From a virus, in the IMG/VR virus record IMGVR_UViG_3300028827_000102, positions 1-64,000 of that record: 64,000 nucleotides of DNA. One strand, 5' to 3'. The notes beneath the pieces were generated by a model. That model did no database searches, was not told where the DNA came from, and saw nothing but the letters and a program-made list of their open reading frames with translations. The position numbers were made by a program, and so were the translations under genes. Below, one piece after another: positions 11,338 through 58,849 of this stretch (within the stretch, counting starts at the first letter, position 1; each line of letters begins with the position of its first letter).

Positions 11338-12533
11338 TATTGCACCATTACAGAATTGCTCAATATTCTGTTTGTTAATGCAGAAATAGATTGCAATGTG
11401 GCTACGCTGCCAGCAATGGTCTGTTTGGTTGCAGAAGATAACGCTGGTTCAGCTGCCAGGACATTAAATGTTGCTGACAAACTGATCAACATTGTATCTA
11501 ACATACTTTGTAAAGTATTACCCAATACAGCCGATTCAGTGGCAGTATTACCAAGTTTTATTGTATTTGATTTTATATGGGTGGAAGGTGTTTTAATAGT
11601 CAATGAGTTACCAAAAATTAAATTTCCTTTTTTCTTTGCATTTAAAGTTATATCTTTTATACGTATTTTTAATTTATGTTTATCGCCCATATCTACTAAT
11701 GTATCTCTGTCTCTAGTGTGTGTATTTCTAATAGTTACATTTAATTCTTCGTCAACAAATGTTTCAAGTCTATAAGCACCTGTACTGTCACCAATTTGTT
11801 TAATACATCGTAAAGGCTTTCCTGTTCTTCCGTCCTTTAAAACTTTACCATTTTCGTCATAAATGTTACCTTCATGTGTTACTACCAACAATTTGTCTTC
11901 TTGAGAATATAGCCATCTACCATACTCTAGAAGAAATTTATCTCCATCCATAACATATTTTTCTCTGGTAAATGGCTTATTAGTATCGGGACGTTTAACC
12001 ACACCAAATCTTTCCTCATGTCTTATATTGGGTAATTCATGTAAATGTAATTCTCTTCTGTATGTTGGTGTTCTTTGTCGTATCTCTAATTTATCCATAT
12101 CTAAGTCATGTTCTAGTACTCCACCTAATGTTTTGACGGATCCATCAGAAAGCCAAGCGGTTGTGGCTTTGCCCGAAGACATTACTTCTATTTCACCTGG
12201 ACGCAGTTGCCTGACTATAATATTGTCGTCTTTTGTTGCTTTATATACAACTTCTCCAAATCTTTGTGAGATATAACCAAGAACAACATGCCTTCTGGGT
12301 GTGTTTGCCATCTCTACCATACATTTTGTACCTATTTCTGGCATACACCTAATCCAACTATGAGGACCTAGATATGGATGTCTTACTGGTACAGATGGCC
12401 GCCCTGTAGTTGTAGCTACATCCAGTTTAAGTACTTCGTGTTCTGGTATAACTCTATTAACAATTGCTTTGTTTATACCATTAAGAGTTTTTGCTGTACG
12501 TTCATTGTTGACTATTTCTCTTATAGTAGGCAC
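11337..12533 (-). CDS. Baseplate central spike / puncturing protein (gpV/gp5-like)
   Basis: N-terminal OB-fold signature PYLGPHSWIRCMPEIGTKCMV, C-terminal beta-repeat ending IKLGNTATESAVLGNTL; follows the hub gene. Confidence 0.75.
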   Translation of the reverse strand: MPTIREIVNNERTAKTLNGINKAIVNRVIPEHEVLKLDVATTTGRPSVPVRHPYLGPHSWIRCMPEIGTKCMVEMANTPRRHVVLGYISQRFGEVVYKATKDDNIIVRQLRPGEIEVMSSGKATTAWLSDGSVKTLGGVLEHDLDMDKLEIRQRTPTYRRELHLHELPNIRHEERFGVVKRPDTNKPFTREKYVMDGDKFLLEYGRWLYSQEDKLLVVTHEGNIYDENGKVLKDGRTGKPLRCIKQIGDSTGAYRLETFVDEELNVTIRNTHTRDRDTLVDMGDKHKLKIRIKDITLNAKKKGNLIFGNSLTIKTPSTHIKSNTIKLGNTATESAVLGNTLQSMLDTMLISLSATFNVLAAEPALSSATKQTIAGSVATLQSISALTNRILSNSVMVQ

Positions 12534-15500
12534 TATGATCTCCTAGAAGCTGGCTTACGTGTATATGTATCCATTCTACCTTGTGCAGTATCTTTATCAA
12601 CTTTAGCATCTAGTCTATTAGCAATACGAATGGTAGCATTTTCGTTCCTCCTGGAAGGTATTCCGGAGTAATGCTTTTCCAGCGCTGTTGTAAGTTGTAA
12701 CTTACATTCTTTTACAGCAGAAATTCTATTTCTTCTTCCACGTTTTCGTCTAGCCGCTTTTTTACAGGCATTGTATTTTCTAAAAATGTTTAAACGTTCT
12801 TTTAAAATAACCGTAGACCCGCACAAAGAATATCTTTGAGTTGATCTATCTGGTCTGTATATATAAATATCATTTACATATTTATAGTATTTTCTGTAAT
12901 CGCTGGTAAGTGTTGGAAGTATTTCTTCTGGTTTAAAGAAGAAAAATGGGTTTGTAAATAAAGCATCTCCACGTAGTTTTACTGTTCTATAAAACCTATA
13001 ACGCAGGTTATCTTTTGTTGGCCACGAGGCCGGACGCATTAAATAGTCCAATGCATCGTCAACTGTTTCGATTGGTTTTTTGCCCTGTTTTCTTCTATGT
13101 TCATTTATTCTATTAAAATATCTTTGCCATTTTTCGCTCATTTTGTCTGATTTTATATTATTACCAGTGACCTTCATGGCGAGCATGGTGCGCATATATT
13201 CTCTATTTGCTTTTAATGTTTCTTGGAGTGCGCTTTGATCTGTACGTTTACTGTTGGTGTGTATTAACATTTCTACATGTACATGGTAAGTACTTGAATT
13301 GCCTGTATTACCAACATAAGCTATTTTTTCTCCCGCTTTAGGTAACCGCGAATAACCATGTAAACCAAAATAATAGTTACTTCCAGAAGGCTTTACTACA
13401 TCGTCTAAATGTCCAAAACGAAGTGTAACGTATAAACTTTTAGAGGCATCTCCTGGAAGTGTTACAGATCCGACCACCTCCATAAACATTCCTATTTTTG
13501 TGCTGTATCCTTTTGGATTCAATCTTGGCGTAGCTGCTCCGTTACTATACTTCTTGAATCGTTTTAGCATACCTTCGTCCACTACCACTTCCAAGAAACC
13601 ATCGCCCACATCTTTTGGTTTAGTGCCCTGTATTATAAATGGAAAAAGGGAAGGAAATTTTGTTACATGTACTCTATATTTTTTCTTTTGATTAGTGCGC
13701 CAACCAGCTGGTATACCTAATATACATATTGTGGGTTTTATTGGTGTATGTATAGGTGTGCCTTTAGGAGCTATTAAATCTACACCATTATGCCACGAAA
13801 ATCTGCTTTTGTAGGCATCACCCACACCACGCACAGGACCATAATTTGAAAATACAGACGGATTCCCTTTTACTGTAGCTGGTCCGCCTAACACAAACCC
13901 ATATGGATATGGGTTGTAAAACAACCTTCTAACGTCGTATATTGGTTTGTCTCCTTCGTGTTTTTTGGCGTTACCGTCGTGTAAACCAGTGTCTTTTGTT
14001 GTTATTGCTTCTGCCTTGTCGCCTGGATTAGGAGGTTCCCTGCTTACTCTTGTACCAACAAAACCACCGTGCAATCCATGTAATAGGTATTTTGGTATAT
14101 CTCCAGATTGCCCAGCAGCCCCTGCGGTAGATCCCCCATATGTACTAGCCACCCTAAACTGAGACAATCTGTCAACTGAAAATGCACTCGCTTCTATATA
14201 ACGATCTCGAAGTAATGGGCCGCAAGACCAATTAGTATTACGCATATCTCTTACGCTATGTCCCGACGCATCAGATATGCTTTTTGCTGCAGCTCCCATA
14301 CTTCTACCCAATGTTCTATGTTCTACGGCTTTCCGCGCGCCCCATCTCATATTGTACTTTATATCTCCGGTAAATAGACCAGAGTAATCGATAGGCATTC
14401 TAGATCCACCTGTTATGGTTCTAAATGTTCCATCTCTAAACAACTCTTTCACATACGAAACATTCATGTCTACAGTACAATTACCATCAGGAGGGGACAT
14501 AGAATAACTTACATTTTTTATCATACCGATACGTTGTCTGGGTACTAAGTGAATGGGTCTATTTGGTAACAAATAAGGACGAAACGGTATCTTTATCGAC
14601 ATGGATGACATTTGTCCCATGTCTTTTTGTATTTCAAGGTAGGCATAAGCTAGTAAAGACGCGACACCCGCATTTGCCGAAATTAAACCACCTATTCCTG
14701 GTATTTTCACATTTATCTGTTTTACTTTTGCTCCTATTCTTTGTGCTAATATTGGGGCCACAATTACTTTTTTCTTGAACAGATTTTGTACTAATTGATT
14801 AAATGCGGCTTTTTTAGTTTCGTCGTCTTCTTCTCCAGTCAATACCCAAGCAGTGTACATCGGACCAGTTTCTGGTGTTATTCTGTCTGATATTAATTCC
14901 TTTGCTACTTTATAAGCACCAGAAAATACCTTTCCCCAATCACTAGGAAGACCGTTATACATGGGGAACTCAAATATCATATCCCCCATAGGAGACACAT
15001 AAAACTGATAATCTAATGTATCTGATATCGCATTTAGTAATGACAATCTTGTTTCATATCTGTAACTTCCTTCTGTCCCGGTAGCATGGCCTATATTTTG
15101 ATGTACGATAGTTGCCGCTCCAGTGCCGCTTTTAGGCAATAACATATGTACGAAGCATTGTAGAGGTGAAAATACAGCACTTTCACTCCTGTCTGACACA
15201 GTACCATGCCCAATTGCACTCACTTCACGATAAGTAAACGGTCTGCCTATTATACCAAACAAAACAGTTTTGTTCCATGCCTGCATCTTTCTCGTATCGT
15301 ACTTATCCAAATCTAATTCTATCCCCATAGAAGTAGGCAGATGTGTGAGTGTAAGCCACTTAACGGCTGTTTCATATGACATACCAGCTAGAGGGTGCGA
15401 GTCTCTAGACAAAGCGTTTACCAAATCTTGGTACATTCCTGCATTTTTTTCATTAAATTGTGCGGCTGTATGGACAAAATCGGCCTTTGTTCCTCCAGCT

Positions 15501-17743
15501 TCACTTTGCTTCACTGCGTCTGATTGTCCTTTTGTGTGTGCTTCCCTCAACTGTCTACGTAATTCTTGTATTCTTCGTTGTCTGCGTACATTTGGGTCTC
15601 TTTTTTCTTCTCTGGTTACTTTTGCTTCTGCATCCTTAAATGCTTTTCTTACTGTCTCAAGACGTGAATTTAGTTCTTTAAGCAGATCCGCTTGCTTGTA
15701 TTTTAATGAGCCAAGAGCACCTTTTACGTATTTTTCGTTATATTCAGTAAGAGCTTGAATGAGTCCATTATTCATTTCAGGTGTTATATATCGATATACA
15801 GTATCCTTAAACATTTTATTGGCATTGAATACAATCAATGTACCAGATGTGTCCACATATTTTTTCAGATACTTTTCAAGCTCCCGTCTAGATTTTTCAG
15901 CGAAATCTCTTTTTCCTTTTGCTCTGGGCAGATTTGACTTAAAATTCTCTACCTTTTTTGCTACATATGCACTTAATAACAATGATACATCATTATATTG
16001 TGGCCAATAATAACCTGAGTAGTTTTCTATAAAATTTTGTTCAGACCTAGAATCATTAGGTAAAAAAGCAGTGGCAAAATTACTACTTCCGCCTGCTATT
16101 TTCCGTATTGCGGATTTTGCAGATATGTCTTCTCTTTTATCCCAACTTAGTTGTTTTTCCAAATCATTATCGTTTATATTTTTAAGAAGATCGTCTATTA
16201 TAGTATAAACAGGACCATAATTATTATACAATAGTCCTTCTATTTTCTCTTTATTGCTTGCATTTGGGTTTGCTTTGATCTTTGACTGTGCTGTTTTGTA
16301 TGCAGCGCTCACTGTTTGCGCAGCAGATATTATTTCTCGTCCTTTTGTGTGTAAAAATCCTATTAATTCTGTTATAGATTTGCCGAGGTCTATAGGTTTT
16401 GCATCACCATAACTCAATTCCAGTCTGCCCTTACTTTTGGGCTTCATTACTATCTTTCTCTTTCCACCGTCTACTTTGTTTGCTTTATCAATAACATCTA
16501 CCGCATTTTTATAAGCAGCGTAAAATTCTTTTACTTGAGCTTGTACTTCTCCCTTCGTTTCAGCGTACACTTTTTTAGCACAAGCGATATCGTATTTTCC
16601 GTCTTTTTTACAATTAGCCGCAACAAGTCTATGTTCAAATAAGGAATTAAATAGTCTTATAAATTCTACCGCTATTTCCTGATTGTCTATATTCCTCAAC
16701 CACGCTAAATCTATACCAAGTTTCTTAGCTTCAACAAAAACAGGACTTGTTTCTATCTCCCTTTGTACGGCATCTTGTAATGAATTATCTCCTTTTCCGC
16801 GTTTACCCTGATCATTGGTACTACTTATGGGAGATGCTTGTGTACGTACCCTCATTCTATTAAGTATTCCGCGAATATCGTAACATTTTATATTTATTTG
16901 TCTGTCTCCATTTACAAAATCATCTATTATATCATACTCGTCTATAAATCCAGTAAAAGCCGGTACCCATAGTTCGTTGTATCTTATTATTTTTCCATTT
17001 TTCTTTTTTACTGCACCTGCCATATGTGGCAATCTATAAAACACACGTACACAATCATGTTTATTGAATATACATCCATACGGATTAAGCGGATATAACC
17101 ACATACCCGTTTCATCGATTTGTTCGTCTTTGGTTCCTGGACGAACCTTTAAATATTTTTGACGATAAATTTTATATTTTGCCCATTCATCTGTATGGGA
17201 GCTACTTCTATACGGTGAAGTGATTATTCTTCCTTTTTTATCTCGTGCCAACATCCAACCGTGCGAGTTGAGATCTGCGCACACATTCATCGGTGTTACT
17301 ATAAAAGCGTCTTGGTTATTATTCAGAGTAAATGAACATGTATTCATTCCGCCGGTAGATTCTATAGTCCACCTTACGTCTCCACGTAAATATGGAGTTA
17401 CTTCTGCTCCTTCTATAAATACCCTTATTTCTGCGCTATGTACTTTCCAAACACCTTCTCTGTAGGCAATTTGGCTATCTATGCTACACAGATAAGCATT
17501 ATTACCAAAGCTTTTCCCGCCATATATTGATGCAGAAGGAAAACATTTTGGGGCACTTAATACACTACTTTTTCTTCTTCTTAGAATCGACAGCTTTCGC
17601 TGTAAATCACGCTGTTTAGCCATCAATTGCCGGTACCTAGCGGCACCTTCAGCATCGATACTACGCTGTATCTCCCCCCTTAGATTACCGGCTACTATGG
17701 TATTTTTCTCAGATTGACTTTGTGTGGATTGTCTATCGGCCAT
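12533..17743 (-). CDS. Baseplate hub protein fused to an M23 zinc peptidase (virion-associated peptidoglycan hydrolase)
   Basis: Hub-like segments (RVFIEGAEVT, AFTGFIDE, QFYVSPMGDMIFEFP, PFRPYLLPNRP) plus M23 motifs WHNGVDLIAPKGTPI and IAYVGNTGNSSTYHVHVE. Confidence 0.8.
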   Translation of the reverse strand: MADRQSTQSQSEKNTIVAGNLRGEIQRSIDAEGAARYRQLMAKQRDLQRKLSILRRRKSSVLSAPKCFPSASIYGGKSFGNNAYLCSIDSQIAYREGVWKVHSAEIRVFIEGAEVTPYLRGDVRWTIESTGGMNTCSFTLNNNQDAFIVTPMNVCADLNSHGWMLARDKKGRIITSPYRSSSHTDEWAKYKIYRQKYLKVRPGTKDEQIDETGMWLYPLNPYGCIFNKHDCVRVFYRLPHMAGAVKKKNGKIIRYNELWVPAFTGFIDEYDIIDDFVNGDRQINIKCYDIRGILNRMRVRTQASPISSTNDQGKRGKGDNSLQDAVQREIETSPVFVEAKKLGIDLAWLRNIDNQEIAVEFIRLFNSLFEHRLVAANCKKDGKYDIACAKKVYAETKGEVQAQVKEFYAAYKNAVDVIDKANKVDGGKRKIVMKPKSKGRLELSYGDAKPIDLGKSITELIGFLHTKGREIISAAQTVSAAYKTAQSKIKANPNASNKEKIEGLLYNNYGPVYTIIDDLLKNINDNDLEKQLSWDKREDISAKSAIRKIAGGSSNFATAFLPNDSRSEQNFIENYSGYYWPQYNDVSLLLSAYVAKKVENFKSNLPRAKGKRDFAEKSRRELEKYLKKYVDTSGTLIVFNANKMFKDTVYRYITPEMNNGLIQALTEYNEKYVKGALGSLKYKQADLLKELNSRLETVRKAFKDAEAKVTREEKRDPNVRRQRRIQELRRQLREAHTKGQSDAVKQSEAGGTKADFVHTAAQFNEKNAGMYQDLVNALSRDSHPLAGMSYETAVKWLTLTHLPTSMGIELDLDKYDTRKMQAWNKTVLFGIIGRPFTYREVSAIGHGTVSDRSESAVFSPLQCFVHMLLPKSGTGAATIVHQNIGHATGTEGSYRYETRLSLLNAISDTLDYQFYVSPMGDMIFEFPMYNGLPSDWGKVFSGAYKVAKELISDRITPETGPMYTAWVLTGEEDDETKKAAFNQLVQNLFKKKVIVAPILAQRIGAKVKQINVKIPGIGGLISANAGVASLLAYAYLEIQKDMGQMSSMSIKIPFRPYLLPNRPIHLVPRQRIGMIKNVSYSMSPPDGNCTVDMNVSYVKELFRDGTFRTITGGSRMPIDYSGLFTGDIKYNMRWGARKAVEHRTLGRSMGAAAKSISDASGHSVRDMRNTNWSCGPLLRDRYIEASAFSVDRLSQFRVASTYGGSTAGAAGQSGDIPKYLLHGLHGGFVGTRVSREPPNPGDKAEAITTKDTGLHDGNAKKHEGDKPIYDVRRLFYNPYPYGFVLGGPATVKGNPSVFSNYGPVRGVGDAYKSRFSWHNGVDLIAPKGTPIHTPIKPTICILGIPAGWRTNQKKKYRVHVTKFPSLFPFIIQGTKPKDVGDGFLEVVVDEGMLKRFKKYSNGAATPRLNPKGYSTKIGMFMEVVGSVTLPGDASKSLYVTLRFGHLDDVVKPSGSNYYFGLHGYSRLPKAGEKIAYVGNTGNSSTYHVHVEMLIHTNSKRTDQSALQETLKANREYMRTMLAMKVTGNNIKSDKMSEKWQRYFNRINEHRRKQGKKPIETVDDALDYLMRPASWPTKDNLRYRFYRTVKLRGDALFTNPFFFFKPEEILPTLTSDYRKYYKYVNDIYIYRPDRSTQRYSLCGSTVILKERLNIFRKYNACKKAARRKRGRRNRISAVKECKLQLTTALEKHYSGIPSRRNENATIRIANRLDAKVDKDTAQGRMDTYTRKPASRRS

Positions 17744-49619: not shown

Positions 49620-50115
49620 ACTCTACCTCTTTTTTTAACCGACGATACAGTATTGTATGTAGCCATTTACAAGGAGGCAATGCTACTAAAACATTGTCTC
49701 CTTTATCTACGAATTTTAGATTCTTTATCTTAATTCTATTAGGAAAGCTGTCCCATACCGATATAAATTTGTTTATCGAGCTATCGTAGAAAAACCTATT
49801 TACATACTTTGTCGGTATTTTTAATTTATTTGCCAGCATTGTGGCTACATAGTAGCCAGTATCATCATGTATGTCATAATCACAACATAAACACCACAAC
49901 AACACGCAAGACAGTCTTAAATGCTTTCCTTCAGTATGCTGCTTTAGTTTTTTCATAAACAATCCGGCACTCAAATACACTCGTTCATCGTGAATGTCAA
50001 GGACAATATTACCGTCTTTTATATGATATGAACGTACATCTCCATATGTATTTATCACCCAATCTTTAAGTGGTGTGTCTTCCATTCTATGATATAATCT
50101 ATGTATTAGCATCAC
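49600..50115 (-). CDS. Hypothetical protein
   Basis: 171-aa ORF coupled to the sbcC stop. Confidence 0.62.
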   Translation of the reverse strand: MMLIHRLYHRMEDTPLKDWVINTYGDVRSYHIKDGNIVLDIHDERVYLSAGLFMKKLKQHTEGKHLRLSCVLLWCLCCDYDIHDDTGYYVATMLANKLKIPTKYVNRFFYDSSINKFISVWDSFPNRIKIKNLKFVDKGDNVLVALPPCKWLHTILYRRLKKEVEYEHENG

Positions 50116-52562
50116 ACCAACATTGACTTGTCCAGATACGGTTTAAATTTTTCTGGTAGTCCTGTTTTGTACAATTCCGCTACATGTTCGTTTCGTACAG
50201 CCCACCATACCTGATCAAACATATCTTCGTGAACAAACACATCGCGTTGATTGCCAATAACTATTATTGTACCAATTCTTTTGCGTAGATCATGCAGTAT
50301 ACGTAAAAGACTACTGGTACCCTGCGGATCAAGGTTAGAGAACGGTTCATCTACGACTAATAGATTGGTACTTGTTCCTGTATATATTTCTTTTAAATCT
50401 CTGATACCAAATAGTAAAGCTAAACCGGCCTTGTTCCTTTCGCCACCACTAAACAACCTGCTTACTACTTCAGGACCACCGTCTTTTCGTCTAAGAGCCA
50501 CCTTTACGTCTGTACCCGACGCCACTAAATCAAGCACCACATTGCGCTTTGGCCACATTAATTCACTATAGCGAGGGACGGTTTTAGTCACAGCATCTGT
50601 AAGTATTCGCTCAAATCGTATACGTTTAAGACCTTTCGCACCAAAAGCCTTTTTTAGTGCTTCTAAACATTTATAACGTTTGCGCACCTCTGTCATTTTA
50701 GCAAGACCTGATACAATCTTTTCTTTACGCTTCATCATAGCATCGTATCTATCTACACTAGCACCTAAATTACCTACCATACGGTCAGCTTCTGTTTTGC
50801 TTTCACGTATACGGTCCAGCTTCAGTTTTGTGTTATGTATAACTTCTCTTAGCTGTTCTATATCACCTGAAGGTAAATCTTTAATCCTATTCCTTTTGGA
50901 AATCATTTCTGTGGCAGCTTCTATCAATGTTTTCTTTTCTTTTATTACTTTTTCATACCGTTTCTTATCTTTTGTTATTTTATGCTGATCGTTTCCAGAC
51001 GGAAGTTCTGCCAATTTTGCTTGTATAGTCATCCTAGAAGCCGCAGCTTCTAATTCTTCCACCAAATTTTGCTCTTTTACCATAAGAGAATTAAGCATTG
51101 TACGAAGAGCTGGCGCATTTTTAGGTGGTTTTGGTATATTCTGAAGTTTTTCTTTTAGCTTGGAATGCTTGTCTGCTGTTTTCAGCGCTTTTGATATTTC
51201 ATTTTCCTGGCGAACAAGCTTTTCTAAATATGCACGACGTTTAGCAAGCCTATGTTTCTTTACTGAAACTTCTTTGTCAGACATATTAAATGGACGATGA
51301 CACGTCGGGCACACATCACTCTTTAGGGCTCTATTAAGATCATCTATCTCTTTTTCAGTCTTTGCTATTTCGCCTGTTAAATCTTTCCATTGTGCCCTTA
51401 GTGCCGTTATATCCATGTCAGGAATAGGACCAAGAGCTTTAATTTCTTCAGCAATCTCTATTCTACGCTCTGCGTTGGGTATATAAACATCTTCTATTTT
51501 TTGTATTTTCTTTCTAACGCTTTTTAAATCATCTTCTATTTCGTCTTTATCTCTTGAATCGGGCAATGCTTCTAATCTTGTCTTCAGTGTAGCAACTCTT
51601 CCTATGGCATCTAAAGCAGCTTTGCATTGTTCTACTTGCTTTATTGCATTTTCATAGCTGACCGACAATTTTTCAACATATTCGTCATCTATATCATCTA
51701 CAGAACCTACACCAAAATCAACACTGCTCCATATTTCTTCTATTTCTTTTTGTATTTGATTATATTCTTTTACTTCACGTAATCTATGCTGTAAACGATT
51801 CAACCGTTTTGTTCCGACAGAAAATTCTTTATCTAGACGTTCTGCTTCTTTTCTATAGTAAGCCAGATCCTCTACCAGATCGTACATAGACTTCCCAAAG
51901 CTATCCAAGGCTGCATTAACATCTTCCAACTCTCGTTCGAGTTTTTCGGCATCCCTGAGTACTATTTTGTCGGTAACTAACATAGATTTAGTCTTCTCTA
52001 GTAAATCATCATATACATCTAGAGAAAACATTCTCATCAGACTTTGTTGTCTTTCACTATCTGTTCCTGACAGCAAAACATTATTATAATCTTGCGGTAA
52101 ATAAACAAGACTGAACAAAGATCTGTCATCTAATTTTGTAATGTTATCTACCAACCATTTGGTAGGGTGTTTTCTTGCAGAAGAAGGTAGTATATTATCG
52201 CCTGTGGCAAGATCTATTATACGAAAGGAATTTCCATATTTTCCGTGGTTTCTGTACTGAACAATTTCGTATTTATGTCCATCTACAGATAAATGTAAAT
52301 GTGCCTCATAGTTTCCGCCAGATTGTACATTTATCACATCAGATACAAATGTGCGTTCGCTTCTACCAGTACCTTTTCCGCTTTTTCCTACTAGTAAATG
52401 AGAAAAAATTTCAAATGGGCTGGTTTTACCGGCTCCTAGAAACCCACCATCATCTACATTCAATCCACGTAAAAGCACCAACCCCTGATTCTGCAGCGGA
52501 ATATCACATGTTTTGTACGCATAACCATTATTAAACCAAAGCTTTGTGTATTCTACTCTCAT
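50112..52562 (-). CDS. sbcC: SbcC/Rad50-like SMC ATPase
   Basis: GAGKT, YLPQ, long coiled coils with a CPTC zinc hook, FSGGE signature, VVDEPF. Confidence 0.93.
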   Translation of the reverse strand: MRVEYTKLWFNNGYAYKTCDIPLQNQGLVLLRGLNVDDGGFLGAGKTSPFEIFSHLLVGKSGKGTGRSERTFVSDVINVQSGGNYEAHLHLSVDGHKYEIVQYRNHGKYGNSFRIIDLATGDNILPSSARKHPTKWLVDNITKLDDRSLFSLVYLPQDYNNVLLSGTDSERQQSLMRMFSLDVYDDLLEKTKSMLVTDKIVLRDAEKLERELEDVNAALDSFGKSMYDLVEDLAYYRKEAERLDKEFSVGTKRLNRLQHRLREVKEYNQIQKEIEEIWSSVDFGVGSVDDIDDEYVEKLSVSYENAIKQVEQCKAALDAIGRVATLKTRLEALPDSRDKDEIEDDLKSVRKKIQKIEDVYIPNAERRIEIAEEIKALGPIPDMDITALRAQWKDLTGEIAKTEKEIDDLNRALKSDVCPTCHRPFNMSDKEVSVKKHRLAKRRAYLEKLVRQENEISKALKTADKHSKLKEKLQNIPKPPKNAPALRTMLNSLMVKEQNLVEELEAAASRMTIQAKLAELPSGNDQHKITKDKKRYEKVIKEKKTLIEAATEMISKRNRIKDLPSGDIEQLREVIHNTKLKLDRIRESKTEADRMVGNLGASVDRYDAMMKRKEKIVSGLAKMTEVRKRYKCLEALKKAFGAKGLKRIRFERILTDAVTKTVPRYSELMWPKRNVVLDLVASGTDVKVALRRKDGGPEVVSRLFSGGERNKAGLALLFGIRDLKEIYTGTSTNLLVVDEPFSNLDPQGTSSLLRILHDLRKRIGTIIVIGNQRDVFVHEDMFDQVWWAVRNEHVAELYKTGLPEKFKPYLDKSMLV

Positions 52563-53671
52563 AGGTCTTTTGCCAAATTCGCCAGTTTAACCGCTAACAC
52601 TTCCAATATAACTTTATTGTTTGTGTAATATGTCTTTATTCTTTCCTGCTCTCTGGTACAAAGATCAAGCATTTCTGCTATTATACTGGCCTTAGTAGTA
52701 ATATTTCCGGATTTGCGGTCAGGTAGTGGGACATTTTTTAACATGAATTTCTTTGTCTCGTCCATTAAATTTGGTGAAATCAAATATAATAACAATTGTT
52801 CCAACACTACTATAATTTGTCCGATAAAGTAATCATGTGCAGTTACTTCAGTGCTATAAGCTATAGCTTTACCGAACTTTCCAGACAACACTGAAGCAAC
52901 ATAATGCTGTACAGCTACATAGGTTTTTGTAGCGTCAGATTGCTTGATTATAGCAGGTAGAGCCTTGACTAGATCTTCCCCTGTCTTACCTGCTGAAGCA
53001 ACCTGTGATAGCAAATTTAGAGCGTCTCTAGGATGTCCGTCAACAGCCCGGGCAATCTGTAAAGTTGCTTTAGGAGGTATAGCTATACCTTCCTTTTTTG
53101 CTACAGGCAACAGTAATTTTTTGGCCAAAACTTCTGGCTTAACTGTTTTCAGATAGTATATTAAAGCCCTACTACGTATTGTGGTGGGAAGTACCTCCGG
53201 ATTGGTGGTACATAATATAAATCTGGCTTGACTATGAGGTTTCTCAAAAAGACGCAAAGCTGCATCAAACGCCTGCCTGGTTAGATTATGTGCTTCATCG
53301 ATTATAAAAAACCGATATTTATGTGGAGATCGGTACTTGGCTTGTTGTTCTAAAGCCCGTATAGCATCTATCCCTCTTTCGGATACCTGTTTTTCTACTA
53401 CAGAAGTAGTATCACCACCATAACGAATAGCTTTTATGGTTTGTTTGCAAGAATCACACTTGCCACAAATTTCTCCGTCTGTCCTATTTGTACAGTTAGC
53501 ATATAACGCTATCAACCACGCCAATGTGGTTTTCCCTACACCATGAGGACCACACAACAAAATAGTTGGATTGATTTCATCTTCCAAAGACCCACGAAGA
53601 GACGATACTACGGCATCTTGCCCAACTACTTGAGAAAATTTTATAGGTCTATACTTTGCTGTAAAATTCAT
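52559..53671 (-). CDS. dnaX: DNA polymerase III gamma/tau-like clamp-loader subunit
   Basis: KYRPIKFSQVVGQ, GPHGVGKTT, CGKCDSC, IIDEAHNL, TIRSRA, GHPRDALNLL. Confidence 0.94.
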   Translation of the reverse strand: MNFTAKYRPIKFSQVVGQDAVVSSLRGSLEDEINPTILLCGPHGVGKTTLAWLIALYANCTNRTDGEICGKCDSCKQTIKAIRYGGDTTSVVEKQVSERGIDAIRALEQQAKYRSPHKYRFFIIDEAHNLTRQAFDAALRLFEKPHSQARFILCTTNPEVLPTTIRSRALIYYLKTVKPEVLAKKLLLPVAKKEGIAIPPKATLQIARAVDGHPRDALNLLSQVASAGKTGEDLVKALPAIIKQSDATKTYVAVQHYVASVLSGKFGKAIAYSTEVTAHDYFIGQIIVVLEQLLLYLISPNLMDETKKFMLKNVPLPDRKSGNITTKASIIAEMLDLCTREQERIKTYYTNNKVILEVLAVKLANLAKDL

Positions 53672-54669
53672 TCATTCACCTCTATCAACATTTTTCTGGC
53701 TATTTTTTCTGCCATAATAATCATATCTTGTTGTAGGTTTTCTTTTTCTAAGAACTCGTGGAGGTGCATAAGCGGATCTTCAAAAGACGATTCATACTTG
53801 CCATGCACCTTAACTGGAGGTTCATAGATTATATTGTCAGGCAAGACTACATTAGGATCAAGCTCTTTTTGTGGCTTTAATTTTAAGAATTCAGGTAAAT
53901 CATCACCTTTAAATTCATCCCAAACAACTAGAGGATATGGATGGTTGATGCGAACAAATTTTGGTTTTGCTTTGCCTGTGTCTACGATAAGAACGCCTTT
54001 ATTTTCATCCTCACCAAAATTTACCTGATGTGGCGATCCTGGATAATAAGCGTTGTCAGATATCTTCTGCCTTTTGTGTATATCACCAAGAGCCCAGTAT
54101 ACTATATCTGGCACATGGGGTATTTTGATTTGATTTGATTTTATTACCTTTGTACCATTATCCGTCACGGCTCCTGTAACAGCTTCGTGCATAACCGCAA
54201 TTATAGGTTTATTGCTTCTTGTCCTTATCTTTTCCACCATAGATTTTACTACTATATCAAAGTCATATCCAGACCAACCATGAAAAGGTAACAATAAAAA
54301 CACAACATCATTTATTTCGACAAAATCAGGCAGACCGTCACATATAACATGTTTACCAATAGGTAAATGAGACAGATAATTAAGAGCCGTATCACCAAAC
54401 TTATGTGATACTCTTTGATCATGATTGCCAGAAATAGCTATAACCGGTATAGGACAAGAATGCAACCAACCAGAAAATAACAATCTTTCGCTGTTTGTTA
54501 AATCCGGTCTATCCCAAATATCGCCAGATATAACTATAGCTTCTGCTTTGTATCTATTTGCTATGGCTGTTATTTTGTTTAGTGTAAATTTGTGTCTTAT
54601 AAGGTATTTACCAGGAAACTTTGCCCTTAGACAGTTTAAATGTAAATCTGCAGTGTGTAAAAATCTCAT
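53668..54669 (-). CDS. sbcD: SbcD/Mre11-like metallophosphoesterase nuclease
   Basis: HTADLHL, SGDIWD, SGNHD, MHE, ALGDIH, YPGSP. Confidence 0.93.
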   Translation of the reverse strand: MRFLHTADLHLNCLRAKFPGKYLIRHKFTLNKITAIANRYKAEAIVISGDIWDRPDLTNSERLLFSGWLHSCPIPVIAISGNHDQRVSHKFGDTALNYLSHLPIGKHVICDGLPDFVEINDVVFLLLPFHGWSGYDFDIVVKSMVEKIRTRSNKPIIAVMHEAVTGAVTDNGTKVIKSNQIKIPHVPDIVYWALGDIHKRQKISDNAYYPGSPHQVNFGEDENKGVLIVDTGKAKPKFVRINHPYPLVVWDEFKGDDLPEFLKLKPQKELDPNVVLPDNIIYEPPVKVHGKYESSFEDPLMHLHEFLEKENLQQDMIIMAEKIARKMLIEVNE

Positions 54670-54923
54670 AGGTCATTTTTACGTATGGCTGTACGGTAGT
54701 TGTCAATACTACGCAAGGCCGCTTTTGTTATCAGTTTGTGTACTATTCTAGCCAATTCATCATAAAATTCGTCATCTAGTACCCTCATGCCCATACTATG
54801 CAACAAAGAGTTAACTTTACTTTTATTAATTAAACGTGATACATTTCCATCTTTGGCCCATTTTTTAGAATGGCGTTTTACGGTTACTCTGTCTTTTATT
54901 TTTTTCTGTTCTGAACCATTCAT
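54666..54923 (-). CDS. Histone-fold protein (bacterial alpha3-truncated type) with a basic N-terminal extension
   Basis: LINKSKVNSLL-HSMGMRV-LDDEFYDELARIVHKLITKAALRSIDN-YRTAIRKNDL gives alpha1, L1 (MRV), a long alpha2 and the L2 R-x6-D clamp, as in HMf RKTIKAED and Bd0055 RKTVMARD. Confidence 0.8.
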   Translation of the reverse strand: MNGSEQKKIKDRVTVKRHSKKWAKDGNVSRLINKSKVNSLLHSMGMRVLDDEFYDELARIVHKLITKAALRSIDNYRTAIRKNDL

Positions 54924-55126
54924 TGTATTTTTTGCTTGAATTCTCTATACGTAGTTATAAGACTACGTATTTCATTTTCTTTAGATAAGACAAATGCTAG
55001 TGTTAATACCGAAGCGGCTACGGACATCAAACCAGTACGTACCTTATCAAACAACTCAAACGGAGATGGATTGTGGTACATATTTATTGCATAAGATGGA
55101 AATGTATGCGATTGTTTATCAGACAT
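54920..55126 (-). CDS. Small hypothetical protein with a hydrophobic helix
   Basis: 68 aa; GLMSVAASVLTLAFVL; ATGA-coupled to the histone-fold gene. Confidence 0.55.
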   Translation of the reverse strand: MSDKQSHTFPSYAINMYHNPSPFELFDKVRTGLMSVAASVLTLAFVLSKENEIRSLITTYREFKQKIQ

Positions 55127-55127
55127 G

Positions 55128-56282
55128 CTATTCTCCCTCTACTTCTACAGAATCATCTGTGCCGTCTAAAGCGTAGTTTTTATATCCTAGTAGCTTAAAA
55201 TGTCGTCTATATACAGCATCCTTTTTTAGTAGAGAAAAACAATAATTTCGGAATTCGTCGCTCTCAGCTACTTTTCTAAATGCATCCCAAGCTAGATATT
55301 TGTCTGTAAAAAACTTTTTAAGCAGTATTTTATTTTTTCCCTGTTTTCTTTCCACCATTCCTATTGCTTCTAGGAAATCTAGACCGTCTTGAGCTTTATC
55401 TATGCCCTTGCCCATTATAATGTCTAATTCAAACTCTTGAAAAGCGGGGAAAGTCTTGTTTTTTATTGTCCTTACCCATACATGTTGGCGATACATACCA
55501 ACTTTATCTTCTTCGGCTTTCTTTCTACCGTGTACTCTAATTGCATAATCAGGATAATACTTCCAAGCCTGCCCTCCTGTAGGTGCTTCCGGATTAGCAC
55601 CAGGCATACGCATATTTATATTCATACGTATCTGATTAGAAGCTATCATTATGGCGCCTTTGTGTGCCAGTAATGATTTAGTTACGCCAAGAAAACGAGA
55701 ATGCATTCTAGCTTCTAATCCAGCTGCACCTTCTCCCGTTTCCACATCTCTACTCTTAGAAAACATGGCAGCGACACTATCCAACAAAATCAAACAACTT
55801 GGTTTATTTATATCATGCAAATTCACATCCGGTAGACGTCTAAGAAATCTATGTAGATGTTTATATACCCCTTCACCTGTTTCTGGTTGAGCATAAAAAT
55901 ACGCAGGAACATTCTTTCCGTTTATTTCTATTGTTTTGTGTATATCTAATCCTTGTGTACGCATATAAACAGGATCGGCTGAATGTTCTGTATCATAATG
56001 AACAATCGGAATATCTAACTTTTGTCCAGATATCGCACAAGCTTGTAAAAATGTACTTTTTCCGGAAGCTTCTGGACCGTATATATGCACTAGCCTGCCA
56101 CACTGAAAACCTCCACCTAACTTCAGATCTGCTATGAGAGATCCAGTAGACAGGGCTTTATCTACACGATGTGCTTCTCCCAACGAAACGCAACGTATTT
56201 CATCTTTTGTATCATTAAATGCATCTACTATAGCTGTTACCGGATCGGTAAATTCTATATCAGACTTTTTCTTTCTCGGCAT
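55128..56282 (-). CDS. recA: RecA/UvsX recombinase
   Basis: STGSLIADLKLGGG, IYGPEASGKST, DTEHSAD, AQPETGE, LDSVAA, NQIR, TGG. Confidence 0.95.
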   Translation of the reverse strand: MPRKKKSDIEFTDPVTAIVDAFNDTKDEIRCVSLGEAHRVDKALSTGSLIADLKLGGGFQCGRLVHIYGPEASGKSTFLQACAISGQKLDIPIVHYDTEHSADPVYMRTQGLDIHKTIEINGKNVPAYFYAQPETGEGVYKHLHRFLRRLPDVNLHDINKPSCLILLDSVAAMFSKSRDVETGEGAAGLEARMHSRFLGVTKSLLAHKGAIMIASNQIRMNINMRMPGANPEAPTGGQAWKYYPDYAIRVHGRKKAEEDKVGMYRQHVWVRTIKNKTFPAFQEFELDIIMGKGIDKAQDGLDFLEAIGMVERKQGKNKILLKKFFTDKYLAWDAFRKVAESDEFRNYCFSLLKKDAVYRRHFKLLGYKNYALDGTDDSVEVEGE

Positions 56283-56386: not shown

Positions 56387-57469
56387 TCAATCAAAAGTTA
56401 GATCGTCATCGTCATCGAAAGAAAAATCATCAAGGTCGTCAGAAGAATCGGAAGAATCATCGTCATCATCATCGAAAGAAAGGTCATCGTCATCATCATC
56501 GAAAGAAAGGTCATCGTCATCATTCTTATTTTTTGCCTTCTTTTTATTGCCCTTATTGCTTTTATTGCTCTTATTGCCTCTTTTTCTGCTGCTATTTTTC
56601 TTAGTATTTGTCTTCTCTTCGTCTACAGTATCTTCGTCATCAAAAGAAATGTCATCAAGATCATCATCATTGTCAGTATCAAATTCAATATCGTCAGAAG
56701 ACGTGCCAGACACAGATACAGACACAGGAGCCCCAGTAGCTTTAGCTAAAGCAGCGTAACACCCCAACGAGTGTAACTTCTGTTCCAACACATCTGAATC
56801 TATGGTTTCTATTGAATCAAGCAAATCTACTAGTACGCCTTTATGTACCTTCCCCCCTAGCTTACATACATAAGCATCCTTATTTTCAATGTATTTCACG
56901 GGGAGACGTTTTCCTGTGGATACGAATTTGTATTCTACTCCACTCATATATGGATTGCTGCTCTTTTGTGCTAGCCATGTGAGCACTACACCACGCTTGT
57001 CGTCGTCAACAGAAGAACCTATTGCTTCTGCTATTCCCTTAAGTTCCTTCCACTCCAATACGTTCATATTTACCAGGCCCCACTGCTCGTCCGCGTTTTT
57101 CTTTATATTTGTGATGTGGAAAGCATGAGCCAAGTATCTGAAACTCTGAGGCATACGCAACCACTCAAAATCATTTCTCACGTCTATATACTTGTGGAAA
57201 TTGGCGCATATGGGGCAACCATTATCGACACTGGTAGCCTCAGCTATATCCCAATTTGGACATAAAGTATAGAATCCCTTTAGATCGTTTGATCCCTTTG
57301 GAACAAACTTGACGTAGTGTGTAACTATGGTAGCAAATCCACCTACCAGCCTAATCTGTACCGGCTTTCCAATAGACGGTCTAGAAAGCAGAGGAAGCAT
57401 TTCATCCCAACGTGAATCCGACTGCTGCCCAGGAACCTCTCCCATAGAACGGAAACCCTTTTTTCTCAT
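56387..57469 (-). CDS. ssb: T4 gp32-like single-stranded DNA-binding protein with a long acidic/basic/acidic tail
   Basis: QIRLV...THY...LCP...GCPIC (gp32-type Zn ligands), acidic tail ending DDDDDLTFD, upstream of recA. Confidence 0.75.
   Translation of the reverse strand: MRKKGFRSMGEVPGQQSDSRWDEMLPLLSRPSIGKPVQIRLVGGFATIVTHYVKFVPKGSNDLKGFYTLCPNWDIAEATSVDNGCPICANFHKYIDVRNDFEWLRMPQSFRYLAHAFHITNIKKNADEQWGLVNMNVLEWKELKGIAEAIGSSVDDDKRGVVLTWLAQKSSNPYMSGVEYKFVSTGKRLPVKYIENKDAYVCKLGGKVHKGVLVDLLDSIETIDSDVLEQKLHSLGCYAALAKATGAPVSVSVSGTSSDDIEFDTDNDDDLDDISFDDEDTVDEEKTNTKKNSSRKRGNKSNKSNKGNKKKAKNKNDDDDLSFDDDDDDLSFDDDDDDSSDSSDDLDDFSFDDDDDLTFD
56457..56523 (-). repeat. 27-bp tandem repeat (about 2.5 copies) encoding DDDDDDLSF
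   Basis: TCATCGTCATCATCATCGAAAGAAAGG at 56457 and 56484, partial at 56511. Confidence 0.9.
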
Positions 57470-57487: not shown

Positions 57488-58849
57488 TTAAATATTGTCG
57501 ATACGATTGGCCATTTCTTTTGCCACTTGTACCTTACACGCTAACTGTCGAAGTGTTTCTGAATATACTTCAGCCATATCTAATCCAGAATTATCTATGC
57601 CATCTAGAAGACCATTACGTAAACATAATACCCTACACTCATCTTTTGTCAAGTGCTTTAACATCTTTAGAATGAAATCCTTCGTTTCATCATTTACAGT
57701 AAAAGTATGCTCTTCATCTGGGACATATACAAGCTTATCTTTATCATATACAGAAACTTCTTTCCATTCTGCATCTTCCTTTTGATCTTGGTCATAACTT
57801 ACCACCTGCGAAGCTTGTACTTCTCTTAATGTATCTTCTATTTTCTGTACACTACACCCTACTTCCTCTGCCAGCATATCATTAGTTGGTTCAAAGATAT
57901 TTAGTTCTGAAGCTAACTTACCAGCAGCTGATTGAATCTTTTGGTACATTCTCCATGTAGATGATGGTATTTTTATTAGTGGACCTCCACTAGATTTTCT
58001 GTATGCTTGTATTCTCTGTACTACCCACTGACGGGCAAAAGTGGGAAAAGACATGCGTTGTCTATAATCATAGTCAGAAACAGCTCTCCATAAGCCAAAA
58101 GAACCAGCTTGTAGCATATCACTGGCATGTAGGTCAGAATAAGCATATTTACGTACTTCTACTACCACTAATTTCATGTATGATTGCACAATGCGATTCT
58201 GTATTGTAGAAATACGTTTCACTATATTATTCACTATGCCGACAACTCCGTATAAATAGTTTGGGTACATTATTCCAGCTCTCTGTTCAATAAGCCTTTT
58301 TTTATCCGTAAGTTTGCTTATTCTCTTCATTATTGACACAATCTCATCGTTGTCAGTAGACAACGAAACCTTTGTCTTTAAGGTTGCCAGTTCTAATTCT
58401 ATTTGCTGGTAGTTAGAAGTAATGGCATCAAATGTACGCAATATTGCTTCATATCTGCTATTACGTAAACGTAGCCTTTCTAAAACAGCCTTAGTTTCTT
58501 TTTCTGCTACATCTCTCGGAGATGCTGCTAGCCTGAATAGACTATAACCGGTACTTAGTATCTGCAAATTTCCTGTACCGATTTGTACATCGTTGATAGT
58601 AGTAAAACCTTTGCACGATTCATCGTATATACTATATTTTTCGTTTTTGACAGCACCTCCAGCAATCCTGTAAAGAATATAACATATATTGTCTTCCACA
58701 AATGTGGTGTATTTTACCAATTCTTGTATGCCGATACTTGTGTATATTTCTATATCTTTAAACAAGGAATCCAATGTATGGTAATCTATATCCGGGGCAG
58801 ATAATATTTGCTTTGCAATGCTATTGAACATTTCAAATTTATCGGACAT
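57488..58849 (-). CDS. Phage sigma70-family (RpoD-like) RNA polymerase sigma factor
   Basis: Region 2 KLVVVEVRKY...DMLQAGSFGLWRAVSDYDYRQRMSFPTFARQWVVQRI; region 3 EPTNDMLAEEVG; region 4.1 LTKDECRVLCLRNGL. Confidence 0.9.
   Translation of the reverse strand: MSDKFEMFNSIAKQILSAPDIDYHTLDSLFKDIEIYTSIGIQELVKYTTFVEDNICYILYRIAGGAVKNEKYSIYDESCKGFTTINDVQIGTGNLQILSTGYSLFRLAASPRDVAEKETKAVLERLRLRNSRYEAILRTFDAITSNYQQIELELATLKTKVSLSTDNDEIVSIMKRISKLTDKKRLIEQRAGIMYPNYLYGVVGIVNNIVKRISTIQNRIVQSYMKLVVVEVRKYAYSDLHASDMLQAGSFGLWRAVSDYDYRQRMSFPTFARQWVVQRIQAYRKSSGGPLIKIPSSTWRMYQKIQSAAGKLASELNIFEPTNDMLAEEVGCSVQKIEDTLREVQASQVVSYDQDQKEDAEWKEVSVYDKDKLVYVPDEEHTFTVNDETKDFILKMLKHLTKDECRVLCLRNGLLDGIDNSGLDMAEVYSETLRQLACKVQVAKEMANRIDNI

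Follow-up and report, generated by a model that had tools for sequence, protein, structure and literature searches.

A histone-fold gene in a phage record

We analyzed the first 64,000 nucleotides (positions 1 to 64,000, hereafter the window) of the IMG/VR virus record IMGVR_UViG_3300028827_000102 and focused on a short gene on its minus strand. The product of this gene, P0001, had been read in an original prediction, made from the DNA letters, as a phage-encoded histone with a lysine-rich N-terminal tail, and the open reading frame (ORF) encodes 85 amino acids exactly as quoted there. P0001 has a mass of 9.9 kDa, an isoelectric point (pI) of 10.2 and a net charge of +10 over the whole protein, and its gene is the only histone gene copy in the record. 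The gene and the features of its product are listed below; HLp is the histone of Leptospira perolatii.

54666..54923, minus strand: histone-fold gene P0001, 85 aa, stop codon included (ORF list and translation, homologues, HLp profile match, hhalign)
54840..54923, minus strand: basic N-terminal extension, residues 1-28 (charge and start-codon analysis)
54852-54917, minus strand: predicted helix alpha0, residues 3-24 (AlphaFold2)
54795..54824, minus strand: alpha1, residues 34-43, including K34-S35-K36-V37 (AlphaFold2; aligned to HLp alpha1)
54771..54794, minus strand: loop L1, residues 44-51, with M44-G45-M46-R47-V48 (AlphaFold2)
54702..54770, minus strand: alpha2, residues 52-74, with R71 and D74 at its C-terminal end (AlphaFold2)
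54669..54701, minus strand: loop L2 and alpha3 stub, residues 75-85, with N75, the R77...D84 clamp, A79 and R81 (alignment and AlphaFold2)

No ATG, GTG or TTG codon other than the first codon of the ORF occurs ahead of L40, L41, M44 and M46, and the reading frame is closed by a stop 8 codons upstream of this first codon. A later start would remove alpha1, and residues 1-28 must therefore be translated for the protein to fold. Hence, a start downstream of the tail, the possibility that would have left the protein without its extension, finds no alternative codon before L40.

Homology and predicted fold

A phmmer search over 1.84 billion representative proteins returned three small homologues, one of 82 aa with an E-value of 1.4e-16 and two of 84 and 78 aa with E-values below 2e-4. 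Two further tailed proteins, together with a 73-aa protein listed by one source as 'histone H3/H4', came from a profile search. When a profile of four family sequences was compared with the PDB, it matched HLp (9QT0) with an E-value of 2.8e-9, HTkC from Thermococcus kodakarensis (9F2C) with 5.8e-7 and Bd0055/HBb (8FVX, 8CMP) with 0.02. We also aligned the seven-sequence family by hhalign with 50 distinct tail-less alpha3 histones of 55-57 aa from metagenome loci, which gave a probability of 99.15% and an E-value of 3.9e-19 over residues 30-85. Matches of this strength lie far beyond chance and bear out the histone fold that had been proposed from the letters. The family libraries were silent: Pfam, PHROGs and NCBIfam gave no match for P0001 or for the product of the adjacent gene orf68, PF00808 searched across the whole record found nothing, and PF09123 likewise misses P0001.

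AlphaFold2 modeled P0001 from the seven-sequence alignment with a mean predicted local distance difference test score (pLDDT) of 91.8, placing helices at residues 3-24 (alpha0), 28-31 (a short turn), 34-43 (alpha1), 52-74 (alpha2) and 82-84 (a one-turn alpha3). The landmarks named beforehand fall into place in this model, with S35-K36-V37 opening alpha1, M46-R47-V48 in L1, and R77...D84 leading to the end of the chain at D84-L85. Judging from the hhalign gaps, loop L1 exceeds that of the tail-less metagenomic alpha3 histones by four residues. A Foldseek search of the PDB with the model found mainly histones, and the eight best matches were all chains of HLp, HTkC or HBb. HLp came first, its root-mean-square deviation (rmsd) being 0.8 A and its target-normalized template modeling (TM) score 0.92, followed by HTkC and HBb; the E-values were weak because the domain is so short. 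VIA-align superposed 57 of the 57 HLp residues (Z 7.0, 1.1 A, identity ~32%) and gave a poorer fit to HMfA/B (Z 4.7-5.1, 2.0-2.2 A).

These comparisons place P0001 among the alpha3-truncated histones, in which alpha3 is 3-4 residues long: the predicted alpha3 consists of residues 82-84 and the chain ends at L85. HLp alpha2 is one turn shorter than HMfB alpha2 (PMC12701072), and the 23-residue alpha2 of P0001 fits that of HLp nearly without gaps. The sequence matches to the HLp and HTkC structures and the hhalign probability point the same way. HMf-type (nucleosomal) histones have a full-length alpha3 of ~10 residues, and P0001, with its single-turn alpha3 and no PF00808 match, does not belong with them. 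Sequence profiles, predicted fold and predicted oligomer (see below) together support the view that this phage gene encodes an alpha3-truncated histone carrying a basic extension at its N-terminus.

Several wider scans were made around the family. A metagenome scan with the homologue P0010 found nothing, and one with P0004 was dominated by tail-less 55-57 aa histones having NVSGDFAD in common. The long-extension form was not found in a scan of species-representative genomes, which returned only tail-less or short-extension forms, and no histone relatives emerged from IMG/VR when it was scanned with patterns of the family alignment, P0011 and P0002. Three longer phmmer matches of 407-640 aa, each in multiple stretches (P0003, P0005 and P0007), proved to be repeat proteins having only a KKW..G-like motif in common with P0001 and were rejected as chance. 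In a lookup of sequencing runs, one study accounted for 0.22-0.27 of the sampled words and none was listed as an RNA holder; this result was not used. The search material also contained two fused tandem alpha3 histone doublets, a 119-aa ORF on a metagenome contig (L034:2352-2690) and a frame of ~120 aa in a bacterial metagenome-assembled genome (L068:8001-8360). Each of these chains has two FtF-like (face-to-face) folds, making them single-chain FtF-type pseudodimers that are distinct from DUF1931.

A predicted tetramer of the face-to-face type

The original prediction had placed P0001 close to the alpha3-truncated histones of the Bd0055 type. The truncation held, but the type turned out to be different. 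Histones that form FtF tetramers are told apart from Bd0055-type dimers by an Arg and an Asn at the dimer-dimer contact, R48/N52 in the hidden Markov model and R49/N53, with R55, in HLp (PMC11390915, PMC12701072). The R-D clamp, R55-D62 in HLp, is common to HLp, HBb and HMfB (PMC12701072). In the HMMER alignments P0001 numbering equals HLp numbering + 22, and HLp R49, N53, R55, R59, D62 and F63 correspond to R71, N75, R77, R81, D84 and L85 of P0001. None of the seven aligned proteins departs from R71, N75, R77 or D84, and R77 and D84 are spaced by seven residues.

A four-copy complex model of P0001 scored 0.87 while the best control scored 0.00, a result that may merely reflect likeness to, or memory of, the HLp and HTkC tetramers, which have already been solved. 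Partner chains had pLDDT values of at least 89, and the four-copy runs agreed in 100% of the contacts of the smaller set. In calibration of the complex tool, the mark was reached by 20 of 30 proteins solved as same-chain pairs and by 1 of 23 solved as single chains, using two copies rather than four and no alignment of this family. The model contains an extensive handshake dimer in which alpha2 crosses alpha2; the contacts of lowest error there are 57-65 and 61-61. Another copy is touched through a small additional interface made up of the FtF positions 70-71, 74-75, 81 and 83-84, and thus both the handshake dimer and the tetramer were obtained in silico.

We assigned P0001 to the FtF type because R71, N75, R77 and D84 are invariant and the four-copy model uses the FtF residues between dimers. 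The Bd0055/HBb dimer type does not suit a protein in which R71 and N75 are both present and invariant, for which a tetramer is predicted, and whose family profile reaches an E-value of only 0.02 with Bd0055/HBb, compared with 2.8e-9 for HLp. From alignment and modeling we conclude that P0001 probably belongs to the FtF (HLp/HTkC) tetramer type and not to the Bd0055/HBb dimer type. We put the probability that P0001 has this molecular identity and assembly, an FtF-type histone tetramer, at roughly 75%; our confidence in any particular biological role is much lower.

The N-terminal extension

The lysine-rich tail of the original prediction needs a similar adjustment. Residues 1-28 are indeed basic (9 Lys or Arg, net charge +6), translated and conserved, but they are predicted to form a helix packing on the dimer partner and not a floppy tail. 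The alpha0 block has pLDDT values of 83-94 in the AlphaFold2 model of P0001, an independent model of the homologue P0004 also shows a helix here, and in the tetramer model one face of alpha0 (residues 11, 14-15, 18-19 and 21-22) touches the dimer partner. Extensions of similar length are present in five homologues, P0002, P0004, P0006, P0010 and P0011. A hydrophobic residue at position 15, a basic residue at 17, W/F22 and D25 are conserved in the extension, and K21 is found in the six long-extension proteins. In a phylogenetic tree, built essentially from core columns and with tail-less rows skewed to one sequence pattern, all six tailed proteins lie on one side of a well-supported branch (ultrafast bootstrap 99, Shimodaira-Hasegawa-like approximate likelihood ratio test 94). 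By this tree the six long-extension proteins appear as a monophyletic clade.

With moderate confidence, we consider the extension to be a predicted helix with conserved positions and not a low-complexity disordered or floppy eukaryote-style tail. In VIA-align, H3 chains of eukaryotes, their alphaN helix included, can be laid over model residues 9-85 only at ~5 A, which we took as a lead and not as evidence.

Putative DNA-contact residues

At one of the sites known to touch DNA, P0001 departs from its relatives. The Thr of the RxT motif is replaced by Ala79 (R77-T78-A79). This RTA, already spotted in the original prediction, recurs in P0002, the closest relative of P0001, and in none of the remaining five aligned proteins, which carry RKT or RTT. 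The RxT Thr is a conserved DNA contact and not a feature that defines the FtF type. A second substitution is Tyr76, which stands at the position of HLp K54. Basic residues are retained at the other canonical DNA sites, namely K34 and K36 at the N-terminus of alpha1, R47 in L1, and R77, R81 and K82 in L2. R81 is equivalent to HLp R59, which contacts DNA (PMC12701072). Non-specific DNA binding and wrapping have been demonstrated for HLp only (PMC12701072), and for P0001 DNA binding, wrapping and biological role are inferred.

The loss of the canonical RxT Thr could mean that the histone fold of P0001 is a pure protein-protein module that does not bind DNA, similar to TAF-like folds or to the DUF1931 pseudodimers, which are without DNA-binding residues (PMC12701072). 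P0001, however, keeps K34, K36, R47, R77, R81 and K82 and carries a net charge of +10, and its nearest structural relatives HLp and HBb were solved with DNA bound. We regard such a module as very improbable.

Genomic neighborhood and translational coupling

The histone gene lies among genes for DNA metabolism on the same strand, as follows.

55128..56282, minus strand: RecA/UvsX-like recombinase (RecA E 1.8e-35; phrog_97 E 9.6e-50), immediately upstream of orf68
54920..55126, minus strand: orf68, 68 aa, no known family, one hydrophobic stretch (GLMSVAASVLTLAFVL), directly upstream of the histone gene
53668..54669, minus strand: SbcD/Mre11-like nuclease (Metallophos E 6.3e-11; phrog_100, SbcD-like, E 9.3e-25)
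52559..53671, minus strand: clamp-loader-like AAA+ gene (DNA_pol3_delta2 E 9.8e-26; phrog_5846 E 1.9e-55)
50112..52562, minus strand: SbcC/Rad50-like ATPase (phrog_77 E 3e-60)

The ATGA overlap at the histone start, which had been noted before, is formed with the orf68 stop (54920-54923), and there is a second ATGA at the other end of the gene, where the P0001 TGA stop overlaps the sbcD ATG (54666-54669). The ORF list contains further 4-base overlaps at 53668-53671 and 52559-52562. Four successive 4-base overlaps therefore link orf68, the histone gene, sbcD, the clamp-loader gene and sbcC into a single series of translationally coupled genes that lies just downstream of recA. The only Shine-Dalgarno-like site for the pair of orf68 and P0001 is GAGGGAG upstream of orf68, and there is none directly before P0001, which fits translational coupling. 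A scan for sigma-70 promoters returned as many as expected from shuffled sequences, and we found no convincing minus-strand terminator that would split the operon. With recA, sbcD, the clamp loader and sbcC as its neighbors, the histone gene belongs to a replication-recombination module and is not among structural genes.

Some details of this block are recorded here as observations. Genes for SbcD and SbcC are usually adjacent; in this phage the clamp-loader-like gene (52559-53671) is interposed between them, with a 4-base overlap to each. A perfect inverted repeat of 9-10 bp (ATACGTAGT...ACTACGTAT) at window positions 54947-54970 falls within orf68 at its 3' end, 24 nt upstream of where the histone gene starts, and its minus-strand RNA has a folding z of -2.2 relative to shuffles. 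This repeat might influence the coupled translation or might have arisen by chance. The product of orf68 may be the histone's partner, or it may be a small protein of the membrane. The same-strand block that contains the histone gene is headed by a gene for a 453-aa sigma-70 family factor (57488-58849; phrog_351), which matches the RpoD C-terminal region with an E-value of 9.5e-25, far below the curated cut-off. A gene for a 360-aa protein (56387-57469) with a very long Asp-/Lys-rich C-terminal tail containing DDDDDLSFD repeats lies between the sigma factor gene and recA. It has no Pfam or PHROG match, and its position and acidic tail suggest a protein resembling single-stranded DNA-binding protein (SSB).

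The whole virus record comprises 108,580 bp at a CheckV completeness estimate of 31%, and the phage is therefore large. It is assigned to Caudoviricetes by a baseplate wedge protein (phrog_6) together with phage replication genes. Other phage genes in the window, which has a G+C content of 37.7%, encode a UvrD-type helicase, a DEAD/ResIII helicase, a ribonucleotide reductase, an ATP-dependent ligase, a Cas4-like exonuclease and a primase. Several other large ORFs (528, 551, 783 and 573 aa) have no PHROG match, which indicates that the phage is highly divergent. A 1736-aa ORF (12533-17743) likewise has no family match except for a short peptidase-like stretch. We found no close phage relative by tblastn against 50,697 phage records, which returned only noise at E=8, and no related phage in an IMG/VR pattern scan with RecA. 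The window contains no tRNA genes that could hint at the host.

Possible functions of the phage histone

Taking these data together, we propose the following model. Two P0001 chains would form a histone handshake dimer, and two such dimers would be connected by R71, N75 and R77 in a contact formed by the alpha2 C-terminal end, L2 and the alpha3 stub, as in the HLp and HTkC tetramers. The tetramer would bind DNA without sequence preference via K34, K36, R47, R77, R81 and K82 and, by analogy with HLp, might bend or wrap ~60 bp. Helix alpha0 (residues 3-24) would pack on the dimer partner and supply positive charge for additional DNA contact. Because the gene is translationally coupled within the recA-orf68-histone-sbcD-clamp loader-sbcC block, the histone would be made together with replication and recombination proteins, and most likely it would coat or organize intracellular phage DNA.

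The same gene order raises another possibility, in which P0001 is a recombination accessory and not a general packaging protein. The tetramer would act with the phage Mre11/Rad50 and RecA proteins at DNA ends or branched intermediates and steer recombination-dependent replication, as MHF (CENP-S/X) does for FANCM. Histone-fold tetramers act in eukaryotic DNA repair, the histone gene is directly coupled to sbcD and lies between recA and sbcD-sbcC, and a single histone gene in the record suggests an enzyme-like dosage rather than that of a bulk chromatin protein. Yet no specific similarity to MHF was detectable, the best structure and sequence matches being HLp, HTkC and HBb, and phage replication modules often contain unrelated small genes. 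We therefore consider this role unlikely. One could go further and suppose that alpha0 acts like the alphaN helix of H3 at the DNA entry and exit, and that the FtF tetramer is a closed 'mini-nucleosome', a dedicated cofactor of Mre11, Rad50 and RecA that marks or protects ends and recombination intermediates and does not serve bulk packaging; this elaborated version is speculative and, in our estimation, also improbable.

P0001 could instead be a host-takeover factor that coats or condenses the host nucleoid and shuts down host transcription or replication, or that mixes with an FtF histone of the host, if present. Its strongly basic character (pI 10.2, net +10) would suit this function, and HLp expressed heterologously reorganizes the E. 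coli nucleoid (PMC12701072). The position of the gene in a replication-recombination block, and not among typical early host-shutoff genes, speaks against it, and non-specific binding would also affect the phage's own DNA. We judge a function in host takeover to be quite unlikely.

Several observations weigh against our preferred reading of P0001 as a helix-extended FtF histone that organizes phage DNA. The family alignment is shallow, with 7 sequences, and P0001 alone among the six tailed homologues is established as phage-borne. The single-sequence model in the ESM Atlas is poor (mean pLDDT 0.66), and the ESM Atlas feature scores, being < 0.9, were taken as leads only. The helix of the extension in the model of P0004 (residues 2-25) has a lower pLDDT of 62-75, and alpha0 of P0001 is not significantly amphipathic, with a hydrophobic moment of 0.18 and a shuffle mean of 0.22. 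To these are added two substitutions that may matter for DNA binding, Ala79 and Tyr76. As to the biological role, gene position alone is insufficient to establish it, and our literature search did not find experimental work on phage FtF histones, including P0001.

Relation to known histones

HLp, the best match in both sequence and structure (9QT0/9QT1/9QT2), is a bacterial FtF alpha3 histone that forms a tetramer and wraps ~60 bp (PMC12701072). P0001 and HLp have in common the tetramer residues, the RD clamp, the one-turn alpha3 and the shortened alpha2, and they align with at most one gap. HLp differs in being cellular, in having no N-terminal helix, and in carrying K54 in place of Tyr76 and the RxT Thr in place of Ala79. 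The second-best match, the archaeal FtF histone HTkC (9F2C), superposes with an rmsd of 1.0-1.2 A and, unlike P0001, is tail-less. Bd0055/HBb (8FVX, 8CMP, 9EZZ) is alpha3-truncated like P0001 (VIA-align Z 6.2-6.6, 1.3-1.5 A). Bacterial dimer histones are without the R/N dimer-dimer residues (PMC11390915), whereas P0001 has both.

Two groups of phage proteins have been described before. Schwab et al. 2024 defined the alpha3 histone families (PMC11390915), and their 'phage histones' (A0A2E7QIQ9 type) come, like P0001, from tailed-phage metagenomes and have an alpha3 fold. They differ in possessing a C-terminal tetramerization helix and no RxTxxxD (PMC11390915), whereas P0001 stops at L85, the residue next to the clamp Asp, has retained the R...D clamp and carries its extension at the N-terminus; P0001 therefore falls outside this class. 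The second group was found by Liu et al. (bioRxiv December 2024; hLife 2025), who mined IMG/VR and described histone-fold proteins of viruses that are of the FtF type and bear lysine-rich extensions of 5-40 aa at the N-terminus. Like P0001, these proteins combine a tailed-phage gene, an FtF-like alpha3 fold, a predicted tetramer and a Lys/Arg-rich extension in that size range; the extension of P0001 is 28 residues long and obligatorily translated. P0001 has every stated feature of this class, and we have thus rediscovered a class that was already published on computational grounds alone. Where that computational description speaks of a tail, we predict a helix for the extension of P0001, with K21, W/F22 and D25 conserved. 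The helical, conserved extension, the explicit mapping of the FtF residues and the coupling to genes for Mre11, Rad50 and RecA are added here.

Histones in tailed phages were recognized only in 2024-2025, and by computation only. P0001 is a clean candidate for a first bench test, being small, with a confident model, an intact FtF signature and an informative coupled position. Its conserved N-terminal helix is absent from cellular FtF histones. If P0001 wraps or bends DNA, replicating phage genomes would carry chromatin-like structures of the phage's own making, and P0001 would offer a simple system for the effect of an N-terminal extension on a minimal histone.

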